Shown: positions 31,086-52,097 of the stretch, in pieces
How the letters are laid out: every line of letters begins with the position of its first letter
Position numbering within the stretch: position 1 is the stretch's first letter
Assembly: GCF_024223415.1 (NCBI RefSeq)
Contig: NZ_CP100502.1
Reading direction: 5' to 3' (one strand)
Length of the DNA stretch: 64,000 nucleotides
From: Escherichia coli
Lineage (GTDB): Bacteria > Pseudomonadota > Gammaproteobacteria > Enterobacterales > Enterobacteriaceae
The notes under the pieces: generated by a model
Database searches by the model: none
Told to the model about the DNA's origin: nothing
The model's input: the letters and a program-made list of their open reading frames with translations, nothing else
Translations under genes and position numbers: made by a program

Positions 31086-31616
31086 CCCGCGTACCTTTTC
31101 ATGTGAGGGGGCATTGCTGCAATACTTATACTCTATCCTGGTTTTGAGTGTCTTTAAATACTGCGAAGCATACGTTTTTATAATTCGTATGCTTCGCTGT
31201 CTGTTTTCTGTTCACTTCCTTTTCTGAGATCCGAAAACCCCAGGTCACGGATCTTCCTCTCCCCCCACACAACGCCACCTCCTGTAAGCACAATATGTAG
31301 TGCTGCATTCAGCTGCTGATGACACTATATGTTGTGTTATTTCCCTTGCCTGTGATGCGCCGTGCAGGGGCGGAAAACAGCGATATGATTATTTCCTCAT
31401 CGTGGTACACTTCCGGAAAGTTGTGATATTCCGGAAAGTCGGATCTGACGGAAACGGCTCTCCGGTAATTTAACTGCGTGGTTATATGGATGCTTGTTAT
31501 CATGGTGATGATGATAACGGCATGATGTTATCAGACGGCGTGACGGTAAGGGCAGTGATGATGGATGACGTTATCGCATGACCGTCCCTGCCCGGAAAAG
31601 AAAAAAGGAGTCACCC

Positions 31617-32030
31617 ATGTTTTTTATTGAGAATGAAGGTCAGGCTGTCGCCAGAACGGATTACTGGCAGTCTGTACAGGCGCAGGCCGGATATGTCTAC
31701 CTCAGCTGGAATGCCGGCGCAGCCAGGCTGCTTGTCCCGGATGCGGCAAAACATTTACTCAGGGAGATGCGGGGAGCTGAGTACGTCATCATCAGTAAGG
31801 GAACGCTCCATGGCCGCGATGCGCTGGAACTGGTATTTGAAGACGGCAGCGATGCGCCGTTCGTGATCCACATGCTGAGTGAGCAGTGCGATCGCCTGCT
31901 CCCCGAAAACAACCAGGGAGGGGGTTTTGTTGTCACCGTCTGGACGCGTGGCGGTAACCAGCTCCGTTATCCGGGAAAATACCGGGTTGTGGAAAACCTG
32001 CCCGACGTTTCCCCGTGGAGTGAACACTGA
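31617..32030 (+). CDS. Hypothetical protein co-transcribed with tyrosine recombinase
   Basis: 137 aa from MFFIENEGQ with SD AAGGAG; stop overlaps recombinase start. Confidence 0.5.
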   Translation: MFFIENEGQAVARTDYWQSVQAQAGYVYLSWNAGAARLLVPDAAKHLLREMRGAEYVIISKGTLHGRDALELVFEDGSDAPFVIHMLSEQCDRLLPENNQGGGFVVTVWTRGGNQLRYPGKYRVVENLPDVSPWSEH

Positions 32031-32031
32031 T

Positions 32032-32811
32032 ATGCAGCACCTGCCGGCACCGATCCACCATGCCCGGGATGCCGCTCAGCTTCCTGTTGCCATCGATTAT
32101 CCGGCAGCGCTGGCACTCCGCCAGATGTCGATGGTTCATGATGAACTGCCCAAATACCTGCTGGCCCCTGAAGTGAGCGCCCTGCTCCATTACGTCCCGG
32201 ATCTGCGCCGCAAGATGCTGCTGGCCACACTGTGGAACACCGGTGCGCGCATTAATGAAGCACTGGCGCTGACGCGGGGGGATTTTTCGCTCACGCCTCC
32301 GTATCCGTTTGTGCAGCTTGCGACCCTGAAACAACGGACCGAAAAAGCCGCCAGGACGGCAGGAAGAACGCCCGCCGGGCAGCAGACTCACCGGCTGGTT
32401 CCGCTCTCCGACTCCTGGTACGTCAGCCAGCTGCAGACGATGGTGGCCACACTGAAAATCCCCATGGAACGGCGTAATAAACGAACAGGCAGGACAGAGA
32501 AAGCGCGGATCTGGGAAGTGACGGACAGAACGGTCAGGACCTGGATTGGGGAGGCGGTTGCCGCCGCTGCCGCTGATGGAGTGACGTTCTCTGTCCCGGT
32601 CACGCCACATACGTTCCGCCATTCCTATGCGATGCATATGCTGTATGCCGGTATACCGCTGAAGGTCCTGCAGAGTCTGATGGGGCATAAGTCCATCAGC
32701 TCAACGGAGGTCTACACGAAGGTGTTTGCACTGGATGTGGCTGCACGGCACCGGGTGCAGTTTTCGATGCCTGAGTCCGATGCGGTGTCTATGCTCAAAA
32801 GAATTCCATAA
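32032..32811 (+). CDS. Tyrosine site-specific recombinase (XerC/D-like; probable multimer-resolution enzyme)
   Basis: 259 aa; C-terminal HTFRHSYAMHMLYAGIPLKVLQSLMGHKSISSTEVYTKV (R-H-R-Y motif region). Confidence 0.8.
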   Translation: MQHLPAPIHHARDAAQLPVAIDYPAALALRQMSMVHDELPKYLLAPEVSALLHYVPDLRRKMLLATLWNTGARINEALALTRGDFSLTPPYPFVQLATLKQRTEKAARTAGRTPAGQQTHRLVPLSDSWYVSQLQTMVATLKIPMERRNKRTGRTEKARIWEVTDRTVRTWIGEAVAAAAADGVTFSVPVTPHTFRHSYAMHMLYAGIPLKVLQSLMGHKSISSTEVYTKVFALDVAARHRVQFSMPESDAVSMLKRIP

Positions 32812-32990
32812 GCTCTGACTTTTTTAAATCCCTTTCGGATATCTCATGGATATATTATCGGTATTTCATATTCTGTTGACATGCAGGACCGGTATAGAGT
32901 AAAAAAACATCTATTGAGTACCTCTTGGATATCCGAAAGGTGTCTTATGGGGTCTTTATGGGTATTACATGTGGATTCTGGAGATACACT

Positions 32991-33635
32991 ATGCCTGTTA
33001 TTGCTAATACGCATCCCAAAGGTGGTGTGGGTAAGACAACTTCATCCGTAAACATTGTTGGTGAAATGAAGTCTGATACAGTTGATCTGGATACTCATAC
33101 CGGGCTTTCTATCATTCTGGGGCTGAGACCTGAAGGAAAAGAAATTTCCGTGAAAGTACCCAAAACAGTGGATGAGTTAATCGAAATTATGACTCCCTAC
33201 AAGAACAGCGATAAGACGTTACTTATTGACTGTGGGGGATTTGACTCAGATCTTACCCGTACTGCGATTGCCTTTGCAGACTGCGTTATTGTTCCTTCAA
33301 AAGACTCCCTGACTGAACGTATTGGTTTGATGCATTTTGATGGAGTACTGGACGAAATCAGCTCTATCATGGGGACCGATATAACTGCTCACCTGTATCT
33401 CTGTAAAGTTAATCCTAACAAGAAGAAATTCCCTAAGCTTGATGCAATCCTGCCATCGTTCAAACATCTGAAGCTGATGAAGAGCCGCATTTCTGCTCGT
33501 GCAGAATTTGAGGATGTCATTGAGACTGGGATGGGAATCACTGAGTCTGTTCATGGGCGCTATTCGGCAGGAGGTAAGGAAGTTATTGCCCTGATCGAAG
33601 AAATCAATCATCTGATTGAAAATAACAAACAGTAA
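32991..33635 (+). CDS. ParA/ParF-like partition ATPase (small type Ib ParA)
   Basis: Deviant Walker A KGGVGKTT; 214 aa. Confidence 0.8.
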   Translation: MPVIANTHPKGGVGKTTSSVNIVGEMKSDTVDLDTHTGLSIILGLRPEGKEISVKVPKTVDELIEIMTPYKNSDKTLLIDCGGFDSDLTRTAIAFADCVIVPSKDSLTERIGLMHFDGVLDEISSIMGTDITAHLYLCKVNPNKKKFPKLDAILPSFKHLKLMKSRISARAEFEDVIETGMGITESVHGRYSAGGKEVIALIEEINHLIENNKQ

Positions 33636-33721
33636 GGTGTGTCTATTGGGTATCCATATAGTATCCTTTGGGCTTTTAATGGATATCTTTTAAGTATCTA
33701 ACAAACATCCTGGGTTATCTC

Positions 33722-34030
33722 ATGAGCAAAGCGAAATTTAGTGCACAGGCTGAAAAACTGAAAAACCTGGTGGATTCTGCCAGATTACAAACTTCTTCTT
33801 CTGCCGTAACAGCAACAGCCCCGTCTCAGCCAAATGAAGGTGCAGAGGAAGTTTCAGGTCGTCCCGTGGCTGCCAGGACGAAGGCTAAGAATCTTAAGGC
33901 CATACCGCTGTCGTATTTTGAAGCTCATGCGGAACTTAAAGCGACCAGTAAAACATCTCTGGATTTTAGCTCATATATTATTGAGGCTATAAGAGAGAAG
34001 CTTGAACGTGATGGTGCAATAGGTCAATAA
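33722..34030 (+). CDS. ParG/ParB-like small centromere-binding protein
   Basis: 102-aa ORF downstream of ParA; flanked by GGATATC/GGTATC-type repeats. Confidence 0.55.
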   Translation: MSKAKFSAQAEKLKNLVDSARLQTSSSAVTATAPSQPNEGAEEVSGRPVAARTKAKNLKAIPLSYFEAHAELKATSKTSLDFSSYIIEAIREKLERDGAIGQ

Positions 34031-34139
34031 ACTATCGGATACCTTAAGGGTATCTGATGTGTGTCTTTTAAATGCGTTATGGGGATTCTTCACGTACCTA
34101 AAGAGTCCCCATTAGACATCTTTCTGTTTATGGTGACAT

Positions 34140-34440
34140 GATTCGTCACCGCTTTCCTTTCCTCTCAGTTTCACCATTTCATTCCTTTTCCCTTAACCTG
34201 AACCATGATGTCCACGATGTTTTTATATTGCATTTATGTATCACATATAACCTTCATAATGTTTTTGTATCTATGATTTCCTCTGGTCTTAAAGTTGTGT
34301 GTACAATGTACATGCAATTTATCGTGTTTTTATGTTACATTTGTCCTTTCAAAAAGACCGTTTTTTCATTATAATTGAATATACATTGCATGTATGAAGC
34401 ATGTTTGTTTTTTCTATTTGTTTATGAGCAACGGAGACTG
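34140..34440. promoter_or_regulatory. parC-like centromere/promoter region upstream of parM
   Basis: AT-rich with reiterated short motifs. Confidence 0.4.
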
Positions 34441-34443
34441 GTT

Positions 34444-35424
34444 ATGAAAATCTTTATTGATGATGGTTCTACCAACATTAAACTTGCCTGGTTGGAGGAT
34501 GGTGACGTGAAAACGTTAATCAGCCCTAACAGCTTTAAACCGGAATGGTCTTTTAGTTTACTGGATGATGCTGCTCCGGCTAATTACGAGATCGACGGCG
34601 AGAAGTTTTCATTTGATCCATTAAGTGCTGATGCTGTCGTAACGACTGAAACACGCTATCAGTACAGTGATGTGAATGTTGTGGCCATTCAGCATGCGCT
34701 ACAGCAGACCGGCCTGAAAGCGCAGCCTGTTGATGTCATCGTCACATTGCCGATCTCTGAATACCTTGACGCCAACAATCAGAAAAATAAGCAAAACATT
34801 GAAAGAAAGAAAAAAAATGTGATGCGTGAAGTACGGGTGCAGGGGAGTGATGCATTTGTTATTCGCAGTGTTTCCGTTCTTCCTGAAAGTATTCCCGCTG
34901 GTTTCAGTGTTCTTGCGGGGCTTGAGGATGATGAATCCCTTTTGATCGTAGATCTCGGTGGTACAACTCTTGATGTGTCGCATGTTCGTAGCAAAATGAC
35001 AGGGATTACAAAAACCTGGTGTGATCCGAATATCGGCGTGTCCCTGATTACATCCGGGGTTAAGGAACAGATGGCTGTACATGCTAATACAAGAGTGAGC
35101 TCATTCCAGGCTGACAATATCATTGTGCACCGTAATGAACCTGACTACCTTTCCCGTCGCATTTATAATGCTGAACAGCGTGAGTCTATCATTAATGTTA
35201 TCAATGAACGGCAGAAGTTGCTTATTAAACGAGTTAATGATGTCATCAGCCGTTTCACCGACTATACACATGTAATGTGTGTTGGTGGTGGGGCTGAAAT
35301 TGTGGCCGAGGCTGTGAAGAACCTGACTAAGGTTCCTGATGAGCGCTTTTATCTGAGCTCATCCCCGCAGTTTGATTTAGTCATGGGAATGATAAAAATG
35401 AAAGGTGGTGTGACTAATGAGTGA
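34444..35424 (+). CDS. parM: ParM/StbA actin-like segregation ATPase
   Basis: MKIFIDDGSTNIKLAW...DLGGTTLDV, close similarity to R1 ParM. Confidence 0.9.
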   Translation: MKIFIDDGSTNIKLAWLEDGDVKTLISPNSFKPEWSFSLLDDAAPANYEIDGEKFSFDPLSADAVVTTETRYQYSDVNVVAIQHALQQTGLKAQPVDVIVTLPISEYLDANNQKNKQNIERKKKNVMREVRVQGSDAFVIRSVSVLPESIPAGFSVLAGLEDDESLLIVDLGGTTLDVSHVRSKMTGITKTWCDPNIGVSLITSGVKEQMAVHANTRVSSFQADNIIVHRNEPDYLSRRIYNAEQRESIINVINERQKLLIKRVNDVISRFTDYTHVMCVGGGAEIVAEAVKNLTKVPDERFYLSSSPQFDLVMGMIKMKGGVTNE

Positions 35425-35833
35425 TGAAAATAAATCCAGACGCTGCTCATTTGAACTTTTCCCGGATGAACGGACAGGAGATAAGATAGCAGATGAGCTC
35501 ATTGCAAATGAAAAACTGAAGGAGCGGGGACGTTTCATGCGCGCGATGTTAGTTACTGGTGCGGCGTTTGCAGCTATAGATAAACGTCTTCCTTTGCTGA
35601 TATCGGAGTTACTGACAGAAAATACGACTCTGGATGATATTAATAAGGTGATTTCCAGCGTAATACCAGGTGCTTTTTCGGTTGAAAAGAAATTGCTTGA
35701 ATTACTGGAAAAACAATCTGGTCTCCATACGTCTGTGGATTGCAGTACTCCTCTTACAGAGCAGAGTCTGTCGAGAAATGACGGTGAAGACCAGACCAGA
35801 AGAAACGCTGAAAATATGTTCGGAGATGACTGA
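35417..35833 (+). CDS. parR: ParR/StbB centromere-binding adaptor
   Basis: 138-aa ORF overlapping parM stop; resembles R1 ParR. Confidence 0.8.
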   Translation: MSDENKSRRCSFELFPDERTGDKIADELIANEKLKERGRFMRAMLVTGAAFAAIDKRLPLLISELLTENTTLDDINKVISSVIPGAFSVEKKLLELLEKQSGLHTSVDCSTPLTEQSLSRNDGEDQTRRNAENMFGDD

Positions 35834-35834
35834 A

Positions 35835-37109
35835 CTAACCCAGCCTGGCCAGGGGAATATCTCGCCATTTAGTTGTATAACACTGACTCAACATTTCCCG
35901 TTTCATTTGCCATTCAGGGGCGGTTCCTCGCCCCGCAAACCACACTTTCCCTTTTCCCGACTGGTTCAGTTCATCGAGTGTTTTCATTAACTTTTCACTG
36001 TTTTTACGGGGCTGGATTTCATCAAATAATCCCGGCTGCGCTATACCCGATGGTGTGAAATCAGCCAGCATGACACCTGCCTTCATATAGCGGTACCCTT
36101 CACGCCAGACATGGTTTAAGGCTCTGCATGCGGCGGCAATAATGTCCCGGCTGTCCTGTGTGGGCAATGGAAGCTTTTCCACAGCGGCATTGCTGTAACA
36201 GGGTTCTTTTACTGCAAAGGGTGATGTCCGTACAAATGTCGTCACCTGCCGGCAATACTGACGCTCCCCACGTAGTTTCTCTGCGGCCCGCTCTGCATAC
36301 TGAACAACAGCCTGGTGCATGGCATCTTTGTCTGTGATTCGTTCACCAAAACTGCGACTACAGACAATCTGCTGTTTTGCCGGTGGTGCTTCTTCCAGGG
36401 ATATGCAGGACTCGCCGTTGAGTTCGCGTACCGTACGCTCAAGAATGACGCTGAAGTTTTTCCGGATGAATGCCGTGTTAGCCTGCGCCAGCTGCAGTGC
36501 TGTGTTAATACCCAGCGCATTCAGCTTTTCCGTCAGTCTGTGTCCTACTCCCCAGACCTCACCAACTGGCTGCAGCCCCAGTAGCTTCAAGATCCGATTA
36601 CGGTTTTCTGCCGTCAGCGCGACCACTCCGGAAAACTGTGGCCATTGCTTTGTTGCCCACTGTGCACTTTTAGCCAGCGTTTTTGTAGGCGCAATGCCCA
36701 CCCCCATGGTGAGTCCTGTCCAGCTCTTTACCTGTTTCCTGAGCTGATGACCAAAAAACTCCGGAGAGATGCAATGATTTATCCCCCGCAAATCAATGAA
36801 CATTTCATCAATTGAGTAGGGCTCAACTGCGGGAGAAAGCGACTCCAGAACAGCCATAACCCGTTGGCTCATGCTGTGGTACAGCGCATAATTGCTGGAA
36901 AATACATGTATTTTCTTCTCCAGGCGCATTTGTCTCACCTGAAACCAGGGCTGCCCCATTCTGATGCCAAGGGCTTTTGCCTCCGGGCTGCGCGCGATCA
37001 CACAGCCATCGTTATTGCTGAGTACGATGACCGGTTCGTTGCGAAGGTCCGGGCGGAAAACTTTTTCACATGAGGCGTAGAAACTGTTGATATCAGCCAG
37101 TGCAAACAT
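35835..37109 (-). CDS. impB: Error-prone polymerase subunit, UmuC homologue
   Basis: 424-aa Y-family polymerase ORF (MFALADINSFYASCE). Confidence 0.9.
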   Translation of the reverse strand: MFALADINSFYASCEKVFRPDLRNEPVIVLSNNDGCVIARSPEAKALGIRMGQPWFQVRQMRLEKKIHVFSSNYALYHSMSQRVMAVLESLSPAVEPYSIDEMFIDLRGINHCISPEFFGHQLRKQVKSWTGLTMGVGIAPTKTLAKSAQWATKQWPQFSGVVALTAENRNRILKLLGLQPVGEVWGVGHRLTEKLNALGINTALQLAQANTAFIRKNFSVILERTVRELNGESCISLEEAPPAKQQIVCSRSFGERITDKDAMHQAVVQYAERAAEKLRGERQYCRQVTTFVRTSPFAVKEPCYSNAAVEKLPLPTQDSRDIIAAACRALNHVWREGYRYMKAGVMLADFTPSGIAQPGLFDEIQPRKNSEKLMKTLDELNQSGKGKVWFAGRGTAPEWQMKREMLSQCYTTKWRDIPLARLG

Positions 37110-44516: not shown

Positions 44517-44792
<276 letters not shown>

Positions 44793-44850
44793 GAGAGGTG
44801 CCGGACGCGCGAACGTCCGGCAGGACATAAGCAATTATAAGGGGATGATT

Positions 44851-46809
44851 ATGCCTGTAACGAAGTGTGAACCAGAAACCACCCGCAAAGCAAGCCGTAA
44901 ATCTGCAAAAACGCAGGAAACTGCCCTGTCTGCCCTGCTGGCGCAGACGGAGGAAGTGAGCGTGCCGCTGGCCTCACTGATTAAATCACCGCTGAATGTG
45001 CGCACGGTGCCGTATTCTGTGGAGTCCGTCAGCGAACTGGCTGGGTCCATTAAGGGCGTTGGCCTGTTGCAGAATCTGGTCGTGCATACCCTGCCTGGTG
45101 ACCGTTACGGTGTCGCCGCAGGTGGTCGCCGACTGGCTGCACTCAACATGCTGGCAGAGCGCAACATCCTTCCGGCTGACTGGCCTGTCCGTGTGAAGGT
45201 CATCCCGCAGGAACTGGCGACTGCCGCATCGATGACCGAGAACGGTCATCGTCGGGATATGCACCCTGCCGAACAGATTGCCGGATTCCGCGCATTGGCG
45301 CAGGAAGGCAAAACACCTGCACAGACTGGCGACCTGCTGGGCTATTCACCCCGCCACGTTCAGCGAATGCTGAAACTGGCAGACCTTGCGCCTGTCATCC
45401 TCGATGCGCTGGCAGAGGACCGCATCACCACCGAGCACTGTCAGGCGCTGGCGCTGGAGAGCGACACCGCGCGTCAGGTGCAGGTGTTTGAAGCGGCCTG
45501 CCAGTCAGGATGGGGCGGTAAACCGGATGTGCGGGTTATCCGCAACCTGATTACGGAAAGTGAAGTGGCAGTGAAGGACAACACTAAATTCCGCTTTGTG
45601 GGGGCTGATGCCTTCTCGCCAGACGAATTGCGCACCGATTTGTTCAGCGATGACGGGGACGGTTATGTCGACCGCGTGGCGCTCGATGCCGCCCTGCTGG
45701 AAAAACTCCAGGCTGTTGCAGAGTTCCTTCGGGAAGCCGAAGGCTGGGAATGGTGCGCCGGGCGCATGGAGCCTGTCGGTGAGTGCCGTGAGGATGCCGG
45801 AACATACCGCTGTCTGCCGGAGCCGGAAGCGGTGCTGACGGAGGCGGAAGACGAACGCCTGAACGAACTGATGACGCGTTACGACGCGCTGGAAAACCAG
45901 TGTGAGGAATCCGACCTGCTGGAAGCAGAAATGAAGCTGATGCGCTGCATGGCGAAGGTCAGAGCGTGGACGCCGGAGATACGTGCCGGAAGCGGTGTGG
46001 TGGTGTCCTGGCGTTATGGCAACGTATGTGTCCAGCGTGGTGTGCAGTTGCGCAGTGAAGATGACGCGACTGACGACGCTGACCGCACGGAACAGGTGCA
46101 GGAGAAAGCGTCAGTGGAGGAAATCAGCCTGCCGTTGCTGACGAAAATGTCCTCAGAGCGCACGCTGGCAGTCCAGGCGGCACTCATGCAGCAGCCGGAC
46201 AAATCTCTGGCACTGCTGGCATGGACGCTCTGCCTGAATGTGTTTGGCAGCGGGGCGTACAGTAAACCAGCACAAATCAGCCTGGAATGTGAACATTATT
46301 CGCTGACCAGCGATGCGCCATCGGGGAAGGAAGGTGCCGCATTCATGGCGCTGATGGCAGAAAAATCCCGTCTTGCAGCCCTGCTGCCGGAGGGATGGTC
46401 ACGGGACATGACGACATTCCTGTCCCTCAGTCAGGAGGTGCTGTTATCCCTGCTCAGTTTCTGCACCGCATGCAGCCTTAACGGTGTCCAGACCCGTGAG
46501 TGTGGTCACACGTCACGCAGTCCGCTTGACTCGCTGGAAAGCGCTATCGGATTCCACATGCGCGACTGGTGGCAGCCGACAAAAGCAAACTTCTTCGGAC
46601 ACCTGAAAAAGCCGCAGATTATCGCAGCCCTGAATGAGGCCGGACTGTCCGGTGCCGCACGGGACGCGGAGAAGATGAAGAAAGGTGATGCGGCTGAACA
46701 TGCAGAGCACCATATGAAAGACAACCGCTGGGTTCCAGGCTGGATGTGTGCACCACATCCACAGACAGATGCCACTGAACGCACCGATAACCTGGCTGAT
46801 GCCGCCTGA
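44851..46809 (+). CDS. ParB-like nuclease-domain protein of the leading region
   Basis: 652 aa from MPVTKCEP; N-terminal ParB/Srx-like region. Confidence 0.75.
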   Translation: MPVTKCEPETTRKASRKSAKTQETALSALLAQTEEVSVPLASLIKSPLNVRTVPYSVESVSELAGSIKGVGLLQNLVVHTLPGDRYGVAAGGRRLAALNMLAERNILPADWPVRVKVIPQELATAASMTENGHRRDMHPAEQIAGFRALAQEGKTPAQTGDLLGYSPRHVQRMLKLADLAPVILDALAEDRITTEHCQALALESDTARQVQVFEAACQSGWGGKPDVRVIRNLITESEVAVKDNTKFRFVGADAFSPDELRTDLFSDDGDGYVDRVALDAALLEKLQAVAEFLREAEGWEWCAGRMEPVGECREDAGTYRCLPEPEAVLTEAEDERLNELMTRYDALENQCEESDLLEAEMKLMRCMAKVRAWTPEIRAGSGVVVSWRYGNVCVQRGVQLRSEDDATDDADRTEQVQEKASVEEISLPLLTKMSSERTLAVQAALMQQPDKSLALLAWTLCLNVFGSGAYSKPAQISLECEHYSLTSDAPSGKEGAAFMALMAEKSRLAALLPEGWSRDMTTFLSLSQEVLLSLLSFCTACSLNGVQTRECGHTSRSPLDSLESAIGFHMRDWWQPTKANFFGHLKKPQIIAALNEAGLSGAARDAEKMKKGDAAEHAEHHMKDNRWVPGWMCAPHPQTDATERTDNLADAA

Positions 46810-51155: not shown

Positions 51156-52097
51156 GTGAGTAAGAAGAAAAACACCACAACGCCCACGCCGCATGATGCC
51201 GCGTTCCGGTCGTTCCTGGCGAATCCCGACGTCGCCAGAGATTTTCTGGAACTGCATCTTCCTGCGGAGTACCGGCAGTTGTGCGACCTGTCCACGCTGA
51301 AGCTGGAACCCGCCACCTTTGTTGAGCCGGACCTGCATCAGTACGCCAGCGATATCCTCTGGAGCGTGAAAACCACCGGGGGTGAAGATGGTTATGTTTA
51401 TACGCTCATCGAGCACCAGAGCACCGAAAATCTGTACATGCCTTTTCGCATGTTACGCTACAGTGTGGCGGCGATGCAGAGACATCTGGAGCAGCACAAA
51501 ACGTTGCCACTGGTCATTCCGGTGCTGTTCTATCACGGTGAGCGCAGCCCGTACCCGTACAGCATGAACTGGCTGGACTGTTTTGAGAATCCGGCGCTTG
51601 CGGCTAAAATATACACAAAGCCGTTTCCGCTGGTTGATATCACTGTCGTTGATGACAATGAAATCATGAACCATCGCCGGATGGCCGCACTGACGCTGCT
51701 GATGAAGCATATCCGTCAGCGGGATATGCTGATGTGTCTGGACAACCTGGTCAGAGCACTGCAGGACATCCAGGATGAAGAGCAGATTACAGTTCTTTTC
51801 AACTATCTGCTTAATGGCAGCGAACATGTAACGGTTGAATTTTTGCAGACGCTGGCGCAGCGACTGCCGCAGCACGAGGACAGCATTATGACACTGGCAG
51901 AACGTCTTAAGCAGGAAGGTATCCAGCAAGGTATCCAGCAGGGTATCCAGCAGGGTATCCAGCAGGGAGTTCAGCAGGGGGCGCTTCAAAAAGCACGGGA
52001 AATCGCCCGGGAGCTCCGGAACGCGGGAATGCCGGCAGCACAAATCTGTCAGCTGACCGGACTTTCTGAAGCTGAACTGAAGAACATCACTCACTGA
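51156..52097 (+). CDS. Rpn-family (YhgA-like) recombination-promoting nuclease
   Basis: 313 aa from GTG; PD-(D/E)xK-type N-terminal region, C-terminal QQGIQQG repeat. Confidence 0.75.
   Translation: MSKKKNTTTPTPHDAAFRSFLANPDVARDFLELHLPAEYRQLCDLSTLKLEPATFVEPDLHQYASDILWSVKTTGGEDGYVYTLIEHQSTENLYMPFRMLRYSVAAMQRHLEQHKTLPLVIPVLFYHGERSPYPYSMNWLDCFENPALAAKIYTKPFPLVDITVVDDNEIMNHRRMAALTLLMKHIRQRDMLMCLDNLVRALQDIQDEEQITVLFNYLLNGSEHVTVEFLQTLAQRLPQHEDSIMTLAERLKQEGIQQGIQQGIQQGIQQGVQQGALQKAREIARELRNAGMPAAQICQLTGLSEAELKNITH
51918..51977 (+). repeat. Five tandem 12-bp repeats (GGTATCCAGCAG-like) encoding (QQGI)n within the Rpn gene
   Basis: Read directly. Confidence 0.85.

Follow-up and report, generated by a model that had tools for sequence, protein, structure and literature searches.

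Co-oriented type Ib and type II partition modules in the R64-type stability block of an IncI1 plasmid

Double partition loci and the R64-type block

Plasmids with two partition systems have been described before; pB171, R27 and pINV are published precedents. The double par locus of the EPEC plasmid pB171 (Ebersbach & Gerdes 2001) consists of par1, a ParMRC system, and par2, a type Ib ParABC system. The two operons are divergent with one shared regulatory region, and par2 has repeat arrays both upstream and downstream (PMC7602700). Among IncI1 plasmids, the type Ib par locus of pESBL-EA11 has been characterised experimentally (Daniel et al. 2020, PMC7602700), and we found no other IncI1 partition locus with experimental characterisation. 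The R64-type parAB ('parAB_R64') was counted in 48% of 460 I-complex plasmids (PMC10286972).

IncI1 plasmids, which are major ESBL and AmpC carriers in people as well as in poultry and other livestock, rely for their persistence on maintenance modules of this kind. The R64 type is the most common IncI1 partition locus and appears to be experimentally uncharacterised; in the searchable literature we found no direct experiments on R64-type ParAB or its ParMR. The par locus of pESBL-EA11 is a different system in the same slot, and at least one paper equates it with the R64 type.

The window analysed here, a stretch of 64,000 nt, comes in its entirety from an IncI1 plasmid. It belongs to the R64 / ColIb-P9-type IncI1 backbone, with the order resD-parA-parB-parM(stbA)-parR(stbB)-impCAB, and shows no substantive difference from it. 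Compared with the prototype R64 (NC_005014), the gene order is the same, ParA (WP_001144036), ParB and ParR do not differ in protein sequence, and the two DNAs are ~99-100% identical. The par block has the accessory region on one side and the impCAB/leading region on the other, and the 3.2-kb block is found at 100% identity in many E. coli and Salmonella plasmids. We consider it probable that the region is a conserved R64-type IncI1 stability block made of three independent, co-oriented maintenance modules.

The original prediction placed a ParA/small RHH-like pair at 32991-34030, followed by a ParM/ParR pair at 34444-35833, and four intact open reading frames are indeed found there. Neither locus has a frameshift, which would make it non-functional, and each has at least a candidate centromere. 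The tandem of type I and type II systems was also said to be uncommon, which the plasmid counts do not support. The 3.2-kb block is present at a coverage of at least 80% in 1075 PLSDB records, R64 has it as well, and according to a 2026 survey 971 PLSDB accessions combine an RHH-ParB type I system with a type II system (PMC13245405). The tandem pairing is common and already annotated, and the finding is ordinary, with nothing conceptually new.

The parAB module and its repeat arrays

The first gene of the type Ib module, parA (32991..33635, + strand), was identified from the ORF list, Pfam and NCBIfam. It encodes a small Walker-type partition ATPase of 214 aa with a deviant Walker A motif, KGGVGKTT, at residues 10-17; both its size (~200-230 aa in type Ib) and the lack of an N-terminal DNA-binding extension are as in type Ib ParA proteins. 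The matching Pfam families are AAA_31, MipZ and CbiA. The NCBIfam model ParA_partition aligns over the full length of the protein (E 1.6e-14), with a score of 53.9 bits that is below the curated equivalog cut-off of 180.

The second gene, parB (33722..34030, + strand), encodes a predicted centromere-binding protein of 102 aa. Its N-terminal helix (aa 3-19) is conserved and rich in Lys, the linker that follows is variable, and the C-terminal region (aa ~56-98), again conserved, is predicted to form an RHH DNA-binding domain. Neither Pfam nor NCBIfam assigns ParB to a family. Searches against PDB, with the single sequence and with a family profile, gave chance matches alone (annexin, periplasmic binding protein; E > 0.4). 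Since AlphaFold left most of the monomer disordered (pLDDT 65) and a Foldseek search of PDB with this model gave no match, the protein was modelled as a single-chain dimer joined by an Arc-style linker, and the RHH prediction comes from this artificial fused dimer. The R64-type ParB is at present systematically misnamed "GroEL", and the protein has no family model.

Three intergenic stretches of the module contain the motif GGRTAYC, and together they form the candidate parS. The upstream parS/operator array (32830..32985) has ~8 GGRTAY-type heptads, some of them spaced 11-13 bp, which flank a promoter-like site with TTGACA (32876-32881), an 18-nt spacer and TAAAAA (32900-32905). The Salmonella and Pectobacterium relatives keep the motifs of this array as well as the -35 hexamer. 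A second array (33640..33720) fills the 86-bp spacer between parA and parB, and the proximal half of the upstream array resembles it. All relatives examined have an equivalent of the spacer array, including Enterobacter and Vibrio loci with motifs of their own. The downstream parS (34033..34059) is an inverted pair, GGATACC / GGGTATC, whose RNA would fold into a hairpin with a T run behind it, similar to a terminator. There are two copies here, compared with 5-9 in relatives. In the 85%-identical copy of locus L008 the half-sites are kept while the spacer and the flanks vary.

Eight of the 35 matches to GGRTAYC in the window are within ~375 bp, in these three intergenic stretches, where ~0.2 would be expected. 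When the three stretches are joined they exceed 100 out of 100 dinucleotide shuffles; taken one at a time, none of them is significant in the same test. The support for the arrays is that of the joined arrays, the window-wide motif counts and the conservation across loci. GGRTAYC is found at the same three positions in relatives from Salmonella, Pectobacterium and Klebsiella, and in the relatives that share the motif ParB is 64-72% identical. In two loci with 45% and 39% identity, both lacking ParMR, arrays of other motifs are arranged at the same three sites. Short-repeat arrays thus flank the operon, as in type Ib systems.

Elsewhere in the window, GGRTAYC also forms a cluster at 51918-51960, where four GGGTATCC repeats are found inside an Rpn-like gene. 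A remote centromere was considered here and judged improbable: the motif is part of a 12-bp coding repeat, (QQGI)x4, in a gene of the Rpn/YhgA family, and the match is probably a coincidence. The pESBL homologue of this gene carries a different repeat.

It is very improbable that the ParA/small-protein pair serves a process other than partition, as an ATPase and regulator for conjugation or for the positioning of another complex. The 53.9 bits against the 180 demanded by NCBIfam and the partner protein without a family would be compatible with such a role, but the operon has the type Ib layout of a small Walker ATPase, a predicted RHH protein of ~100 aa and arrays on both sides, and the motif arrays are conserved. 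Further, in relatives the pair adjoins a Rep_3 replicon or is the sole par-like locus of small plasmids.

The parMR module and the ResD-like recombinase

The type II module starts with parM (34444..35424, + strand), an actin-like partition ATPase according to Pfam (StbA_N, E 5e-82; ParM_N, E 2.5e-72). The protein matches the R1 ParM structures with E 6e-104 and ~55% identity over 317 aa, and it keeps the phosphate-binding motifs DDGSTN and VDLGGTTLD. Directly downstream, and overlapping the end of parM by 8 nt, is parR (35417..35833, + strand), which encodes the ParM adaptor, a predicted parC-binding protein (Pfam Plasmid_stab_B, E 7.6e-28). Its N-terminal 83 aa align to the pB171 ParR structure 2JD3 (E 2e-6). 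An actin-fold ATPase followed by its ParR adaptor is the gene content of a type II system.

Purifying selection acts on parA, parB and parM. Against diverged copies pN/pS is 0.04-0.11 for parA and 0.10-0.31 for parB, and parM differs from its copy in locus L009 by 10 synonymous and 0 non-synonymous changes. For parR the substitutions are too few to show any selection.

parAB and parMR are separate transcription units with hairpins between them. The parB-parM interval holds three hairpins (34033-34150) and a 10/12 promoter match. Besides the one just after parB, these are two further strong hairpins (34079-34112 and 34132-34150, + strand), with a terminator-like site at 34131-34151, and the RNA fold has an energy of -45.2 kcal/mol (z = -5.1 against shuffles). 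The promoter-like site, TTCAAA-16-TATAAT (34348-34375), is located inside a candidate parC (34217..34430) and is surrounded by its repeats. These are 25-nt direct repeats at 34217, 34324 and 34401 and a shorter copy at 34259; ATTGCATKTAT occurs three times in the same region, and three of the seven matches to TGTTTTTRT in the window fall into a stretch of 110 bp upstream of parM. In a test with local dinucleotide shuffles the repeats did not reach significance. In the L008 copy the repeat cores and the -10 are kept and the intervening DNA varies; more distant ParM loci show no DNA similarity upstream of parM. That the repeats around the promoter are parC is plausible. Of the repeat-rich candidate centromeres that were originally proposed upstream of each pair, the motif arrays of parAB are thus enriched and conserved, and the parMR repeats are plausible but statistically weak.

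The tyrosine recombinase that was predicted just upstream of the parAB pair is a ResD-like gene (32032..32811, + strand), with a match to Pfam Phage_integrase (E 2.4e-18) and XerC/XerD-like NCBIfam matches. The protein is 95% identical to an integrase of an IncF plasmid, encoded by the gene that directly follows ccdAB, which we take to be the equivalent of F ResD from the ccd-resD arrangement of F. As a ResD-family tyrosine recombinase, of the kind used in the ResD/rfsF-type multimer resolution of the F plasmid, it is presumed by analogy to be a plasmid multimer resolvase. No dif/rfsF-like resolution site was found when up to three mismatches were allowed. The segment 31244-31470 is 87% identical to the stretch that precedes ccdA in the IncF plasmid, and no site was identified there. 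A co-oriented ORF of 137 aa from the ORF list (31617..32030, + strand) abuts the recombinase gene; it is labelled hypothetical in pLH09-a-B and R64, and searches of Pfam and NCBIfam gave no match.

Origin, function and relation to known systems

The segment that varies between plasmids is 32801-35891 of the window. Three par cassettes, of the R64 type, the pB171 type and the pESBL-EA11 type, have the right-hand breakpoint 35892 in common, and this shared breakpoint points to the exchange of cassettes in a conserved slot. From these comparisons, the interval from resD to impB is apparently a hotspot at which partition cassettes are exchanged, which bears on partition-based incompatibility and on plasmid typing. 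The R64-type ParAB is itself combined, in varying arrangements, with three different ParM alleles (identities of 39% and 52% among them), and it is also found without any ParM.

The original prediction suggested that the tandem may reflect cointegrate ancestry, that is, a relic of the fusion of two replicons that each brought its own partition system. We consider such a fusion unlikely, even if one part of the idea is in agreement with the relatives. In the Salmonella and Pectobacterium relatives, parAB of this family has a divergently oriented Rep_3 initiator gene as its direct upstream neighbour. With 28.5-30 bits this gene passes the gathering score of Pfam Rep3_N, and ATTATGAAAGTRACCGC iterons lie on its flanks; in relatives with an 82%-identical ParA, the initiator and the iterons are directly upstream of parA. 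Because of this neighbourhood, the type Ib module may once have been part of a separate replicon. The par block also has a lower G+C content (40-44%) than its flanks (52-58%), and the same block is hosted by both IncI1 and IncF backbones. However, no rep gene, iteron or remnant was found in the resD-parA interval of 180 bp, and no rep gene or remnant flanks the block. The single breakpoint at 35892 for alternative cassettes fits recombinational cassette exchange, and the ParMR partner varies independently of ParAB. The low G+C is similar in both par modules, so that composition cannot tell them apart. Most likely, the two modules are partly redundant systems that were independently assorted into a recombination-prone slot, and not the scar of a recent cointegrate.

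As three maintenance modules, the block could work as follows. The ResD-like tyrosine recombinase would resolve plasmid multimers. In the second module, dimers of ParB, with its predicted RHH fold, would bind the GGRTAYC arrays upstream, in the parA-parB spacer and downstream, and ParB on the array over the parA promoter would lead to autorepression. The conserved N-terminal helix of ParB would stimulate the ATPase of nucleoid-bound ParA, and a ParA gradient (diffusion-ratchet) would space the plasmid copies over the nucleoid. In the third module, which is separately transcribed, ParR would bind the parC repeats around its own promoter and cap the growing actin-like ParM filaments, by which sister plasmids would be pushed apart. 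For either module, DNA binding, autoregulation and stabilisation are suggested by analogy with R1 ParMRC, pB171, TP228 and pSM19035.

Both par modules need not contribute equally. One possibility, which we regard as less likely, is that only one locus partitions the plasmid in E. coli, and that the other is redundant, specific to a host or a temperature, or a regulator or incompatibility determinant. In other dual-par plasmids, with pINV, SCP1 and pMS7163B as examples, it is often one system that prevails, or both are dispensable in the laboratory. Both systems of pINV are active on a test vector, yet the native plasmid is hardly affected by their deletion, with temperature-dependent effects, and in SCP1 only parABS1 matters. 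In the work of Daniel et al., post-segregational killing and re-transfer were shown to mask plasmid loss. One type Ib system, in the absence of ParMR, is enough to keep the IncI1 backbone of pESBL-EA11 stable, ParMR is also missing beside ParAB in Klebsiella relatives, and the downstream parS array is here down to two sites. On the other hand, all four genes (parA, parB, parM and parR) are intact in more than 1000 plasmids, three of them are under the purifying selection described above, and each unit has a promoter-like site of its own and conserved repeats.

A more speculative reading, which we think is doubtful, is that the R64-type ParA/ParB is a distinct type Ib subfamily with a three-array centromere, one array of which is inside the operon, and possible cross-talk of the unclassified ParB with the neighbouring parMR or with the remote motif copy at 51918-51960. 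If true, the two loci in tandem would act as a single regulated unit and not as two redundant systems.

The pESBL-EA11 locus is similar in having a small Walker ParA, a ParB of ~100 aa, arrays on both sides and the same backbone site beside impB. It differs in that its ParA is 24% identical, its ParB is unrelated, its orientation is opposite and it has no ParMR. Its motif is the octamer TTGTTATC, while the motif here is GGRTAYC; the octamer (GATAACAA/TTGTTATC) has three scattered matches in the window against 1.6 expected and is not enriched. Given this and the protein comparisons, we rejected identity with the locus of Daniel et al.

The pB171-type locus occupies the same slot, with a 95%-identical resD on one side and umuD/DinI/DUF1281 on the other, and likewise has adjacent type Ib and type II systems. 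What is shared is limited to these flanks, resD and the umuD side. The ParA proteins are 19% identical and the ParM proteins 37%, ParB gives no alignment, and the proteins are not orthologs by these values. Unlike in pB171, the operons are co-directional (+ strand) with the three hairpins between them, and they have no shared intergenic centromere region; the divergent arrangement of par1 and par2 is seen in locus L010.

In TP228 ParF/ParG and pSM19035 delta/omega, the centromere-binding protein is small, has an RHH fold and a flexible N-terminal tail, and binds short direct or inverted repeats; RHH proteins of the ParG and omega type double as repressor and activate the ParA ATPase. The domain layout and the predicted fold of ParB match this pattern, although its sequence is not similar to that of any RHH partition protein of solved structure, and in contrast to TP228 and pSM19035 there is an extra array inside the operon, between parA and parB. 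The parMR module differs from R1, where the parC iterons are 11 bp, in an unrelated candidate parC sequence with an apparent repeat unit of ~25 nt, and it is like R1 ParMRC in a ParM similar over its full length, in the small parR that overlaps the end of parM and in the candidate repeats that surround the promoter upstream of parM.

A widespread tandem partition block

The window belongs to an IncI1 conjugative resistance plasmid. Two partition modules follow each other on the plus strand, parA (32991-33635) with the gene of a 102-aa partner, parB (33722-34030), and parM (34444-35424) with parR (35417-35833), downstream of the ResD-like tyrosine recombinase gene resD (32032-32811, plus strand). 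The open reading frames lie exactly where the original prediction placed them, and the tandem that it described is real and was correctly read; it is the known, widespread stability block of the R64 type. Over the 3.2 kb around the par loci, many IncI1 plasmids of E. coli and Salmonella have exactly the same sequence (100% identity). In R64, the prototype IncI1 plasmid, the gene order is unchanged, and ParA, the small protein and ParR are identical to those of the window.

In PLSDB, 4218 records match part of the 3.2-kb block and 1075 cover 80% or more of it at a single location. The tandem of type I and type II loci had been called uncommon, which these 1075 records and the published surveys contradict. 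R64-type parAB has been reported for 48% of the I-complex plasmids surveyed (n = 460; PMC10286972). About 19% of the PLSDB plasmids with any partition system have multiple ones, and 971 PLSDB accessions combine a type I system with an RHH ParB and a type II system (2026 survey, PMC13245405). Dual systems were already described for pB171, R27 and pINV (PMC13245405 among the sources). The searchable literature yielded no work directly on the R64-type ParAB or on the accompanying ParMR. The remaining interest is modest and lies in the uncharacterised, apparently misannotated, predicted RHH ParB family, the putative three-part centromere and the seemingly recombination-prone par slot.

The gene context was read in the best-matching record, pLH09-a-B. 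There, a Tn3/class 1 integron resistance region and the yacAB toxin-antitoxin pair are followed by colicin Ib with its immunity gene, a hypothetical ORF, a site-specific integrase, a ParA family protein, a 102-aa hypothetical protein, ParM and a plasmid stability protein, then by impB/umuC, umuD and DinI on the opposite strand and by the leading region (ardA, psiAB). By the same comparison, the accessory genes in window 1-30000 are Tn3-family transposons, a class 1 integron (dfrA1, aadA), blaTEM-1, sul2, yacAB and colicin Ib with its immunity gene. In the leading region, an orphan 682-aa ParB-like ORF (ParB_N and HTH_ParB; 44761-46809) without a ParA partner lies between a DUF905 gene and psiB. 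Its position matches that of "parB_2" of pMS7163B, which is dispensable for maintenance (PMC10286972).

Type I proteins and putative centromere arrays

ParA is 214 aa long, lacks an N-terminal extension and has a deviant Walker A motif, KGGVGKTT, from residue 10. It matches Pfam AAA_31, MipZ and CbiA, and its alignment to NCBIfam ParA_partition is full-length (E 1.6e-14, under the equivalog cut-off). The 102-aa partner has no match in Pfam, NCBIfam or a PDB sequence search. In most NCBI records its name is "molecular chaperone GroEL", apparently a wrong label that has spread between entries for what is predicted to be an RHH centromere-binding protein. When 18 homologues are aligned, among them ones from Enterobacter and Vibrio plasmids at 47% and 45% identity, the N-terminal part is Lys-rich and conserved, the middle is a variable low-complexity linker, and the C-terminal 45 aa are nearly invariant (…KAIPLSYFEAHAELK…TSLDFSSYIIEAIREKLERDG). 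DndE and F-plasmid TraY underlie the RHH prediction, so the partner's description as RHH-like is supported only at the level of prediction.

A repeat-rich candidate centromere had also been described upstream of parA, and motif arrays are indeed present there and kept across relatives. The heptad GGRTAYC has 35 matches in the window, eight of them inside three short intergenic stretches, against about 0.2 expected. These are an array upstream of parA (32830-32985), an array in the 86-bp parA-parB spacer (33640-33720) and an inverted pair directly 3' of parB (34033-34059). When degenerate copies are counted, about eight units make up the array upstream of parA, several of them at 11-13 bp spacing, and they flank a promoter-like TTGACA, 18-nt spacer and TAAAAA. 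Taken singly, no stretch has a repeat content above its own dinucleotide shuffles, but the three joined exceed 100 out of 100 shuffles.

Comparative data are stronger evidence for this putative centromere than the shuffle tests. In relatives from Salmonella, Pectobacterium and Klebsiella (ParA about 82%, ParB 64-72% identical to the window's), GGRTAYC clusters at the matching three positions, and the -35 hexamer and individual motif copies can be aligned with the window; downstream copies number two in the window vs 5-9 in the relatives. In L008, an IncF copy with an 85%-identical parB-parM spacer, both downstream half-sites are kept and the DNA between them is changed. Distant loci have a three-site (Enterobacter, ParA 45% identical) or two-site (Vibrio, 39%) layout with motifs of their own and no ParMR nearby.

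Elsewhere in the window, four 12-bp tandem repeats CAGCAGGGTATC at 51918-51960 encode (QQGI)n in an Rpn/YhgA-family nuclease gene (ORF 51156-52097). They contain the GGGTATCC motif, which also occurs in the putative parS arrays, probably by coincidence; the homologue in the IncI1 plasmid pESBL-EA11 has a different repeat.

Type II module and intactness

ParM matches Pfam StbA_N (E 5e-82) and ParM_N. Across 317 residues it shares about 55% identity with R1 ParM, and the phosphate-binding motifs, DDGSTN and VDLGGTTLD, are retained. The gene parR overlaps the end of parM; ParR matches Plasmid_stab_B (E 7.6e-28), and residues 1-83 can be aligned with 2JD3, a structure of pB171 ParR (E 2e-6). The stretch from the parB stop to parM holds three strong hairpins (z = -5.1 vs shuffles). 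The first is formed by the palindrome of the putative downstream parS and has a T run behind it. Separate transcription of parAB and parMR is therefore probable.

A promoter match of 10/12 (34348-34375) precedes parM. Around it lie 25-nt direct repeats (34217, 34324, 34401; a shorter copy at 34259) and three copies of ATTGCATKTAT, and three out of seven window matches to TGTTTTTRT fall within 110 bp. The repeats of the candidate centromere described here are present, and L008 keeps their cores and the -10, with variable DNA in between, but in this AT-rich stretch a local shuffle test is not significant. The repeats are a plausible candidate parC.

Selection was estimated against two diverged IncF-borne copies. 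The pN/pS is 0.04-0.11 for parA and 0.10-0.31 for parB, parM has 0 non-synonymous vs 10 synonymous changes, and parR has too few changes for an estimate. Single-base gaps occur in parM of L008 (3420-4398) and in parA and parM of L007, a second record. Each of the two L008 gaps falls in a homopolymer (a G run, and an A8 shortened to A7), and the gaps in the two records are more likely assembly or long-read sequencing errors than real pseudogenes; the gapped genes are consequently missing from the annotation of these records. In the window, neither locus has a frameshift or lacks a candidate centromere, the signs that would have counted against the original prediction.

By analogy with characterised families, ParB dimers of this type Ib system would load onto the heptad arrays and repress the parAB promoter, and the ParB N-terminal segment would stimulate nucleoid-bound ParA-ATP, leading to plasmid copies spaced along the nucleoid. 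ParR on parC would capture the ends of ParM filaments, which would push sister plasmids apart, and the ResD-like recombinase would provide monomers to both systems. Depending on host or temperature, one of the two systems may be dominant, cf. pINV and SCP1.

The par slot and known systems

A pB171-type double locus occupies the same slot as the window's par block. A pB171-like IncF plasmid has the order ccdAB, integrase, ParB and ParA on the opposite strand, ParM, ParR, umuD, DinI and DUF1281. The integrase shares 95% identity with the window's, whereas ParA is 19% identical, ParB unalignable and ParM 37% identical. Homology in blastn ends at window 32800 and is back at 35892, inside the 3' end of impB, and homology to pESBL-EA11 (NC_018659), with a single type Ib system as third cassette, starts at exactly 35892. 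Because both resume at this position, 32801-35891 appears to behave as an exchangeable partition slot, an apparent hotspot of par-module exchange.

Upstream of the hypothetical ORF and resD, the non-coding 31244-31470 shares 87% identity with the sequence immediately ahead of ccdA on an IncF plasmid and contains two TTCCGGAAAGT repeats. This stretch is a possible resolution site for the recombinase; a search revealed no dif-like core.

The suggestion that the tandem reflects cointegrate ancestry meets mixed and indirect evidence. It finds some ground in related Salmonella and Pectobacterium loci, where a Rep_3-family initiator gene lies directly upstream of and divergent from parA, between integrase and parA (L016 2640-4060, L012 2870-3733), flanked by ATTATGAAAGTRACCGC iterons as in a typical plasmid rep-par core. 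The G+C of the par block (window 33001-36000) is also 40-44% vs 52-58% on the recombinase and impCAB sides. However, the Rep_3 gene and iterons are absent from the window, the 180 bp between resD and parA hold nothing replicon-like, and the shared breakpoint suggests cassette exchange. The ParM that accompanies R64-type ParAB moreover varies (alleles of 39% and 52% identity), and ParAB also occurs separated from ParMR by umuDC, or without any ParMR. We consider cointegrate ancestry unlikely.

The pESBL-EA11 par system was characterised by Tn-seq, mini-F stabilisation, GFP foci and EMSA (PMC7602700). R64 parAB was stated to be 100% conserved in pESBL (PMC10286972), but for pESBL-EA11 this does not hold: its ParA is 24% identical to the window's, its ParB unrelated, and it has an TTGTTATC octamer repeat, the opposite orientation and no ParMR. 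Across the compared plasmids, three different partition cassettes occupy the resD-impB interval.
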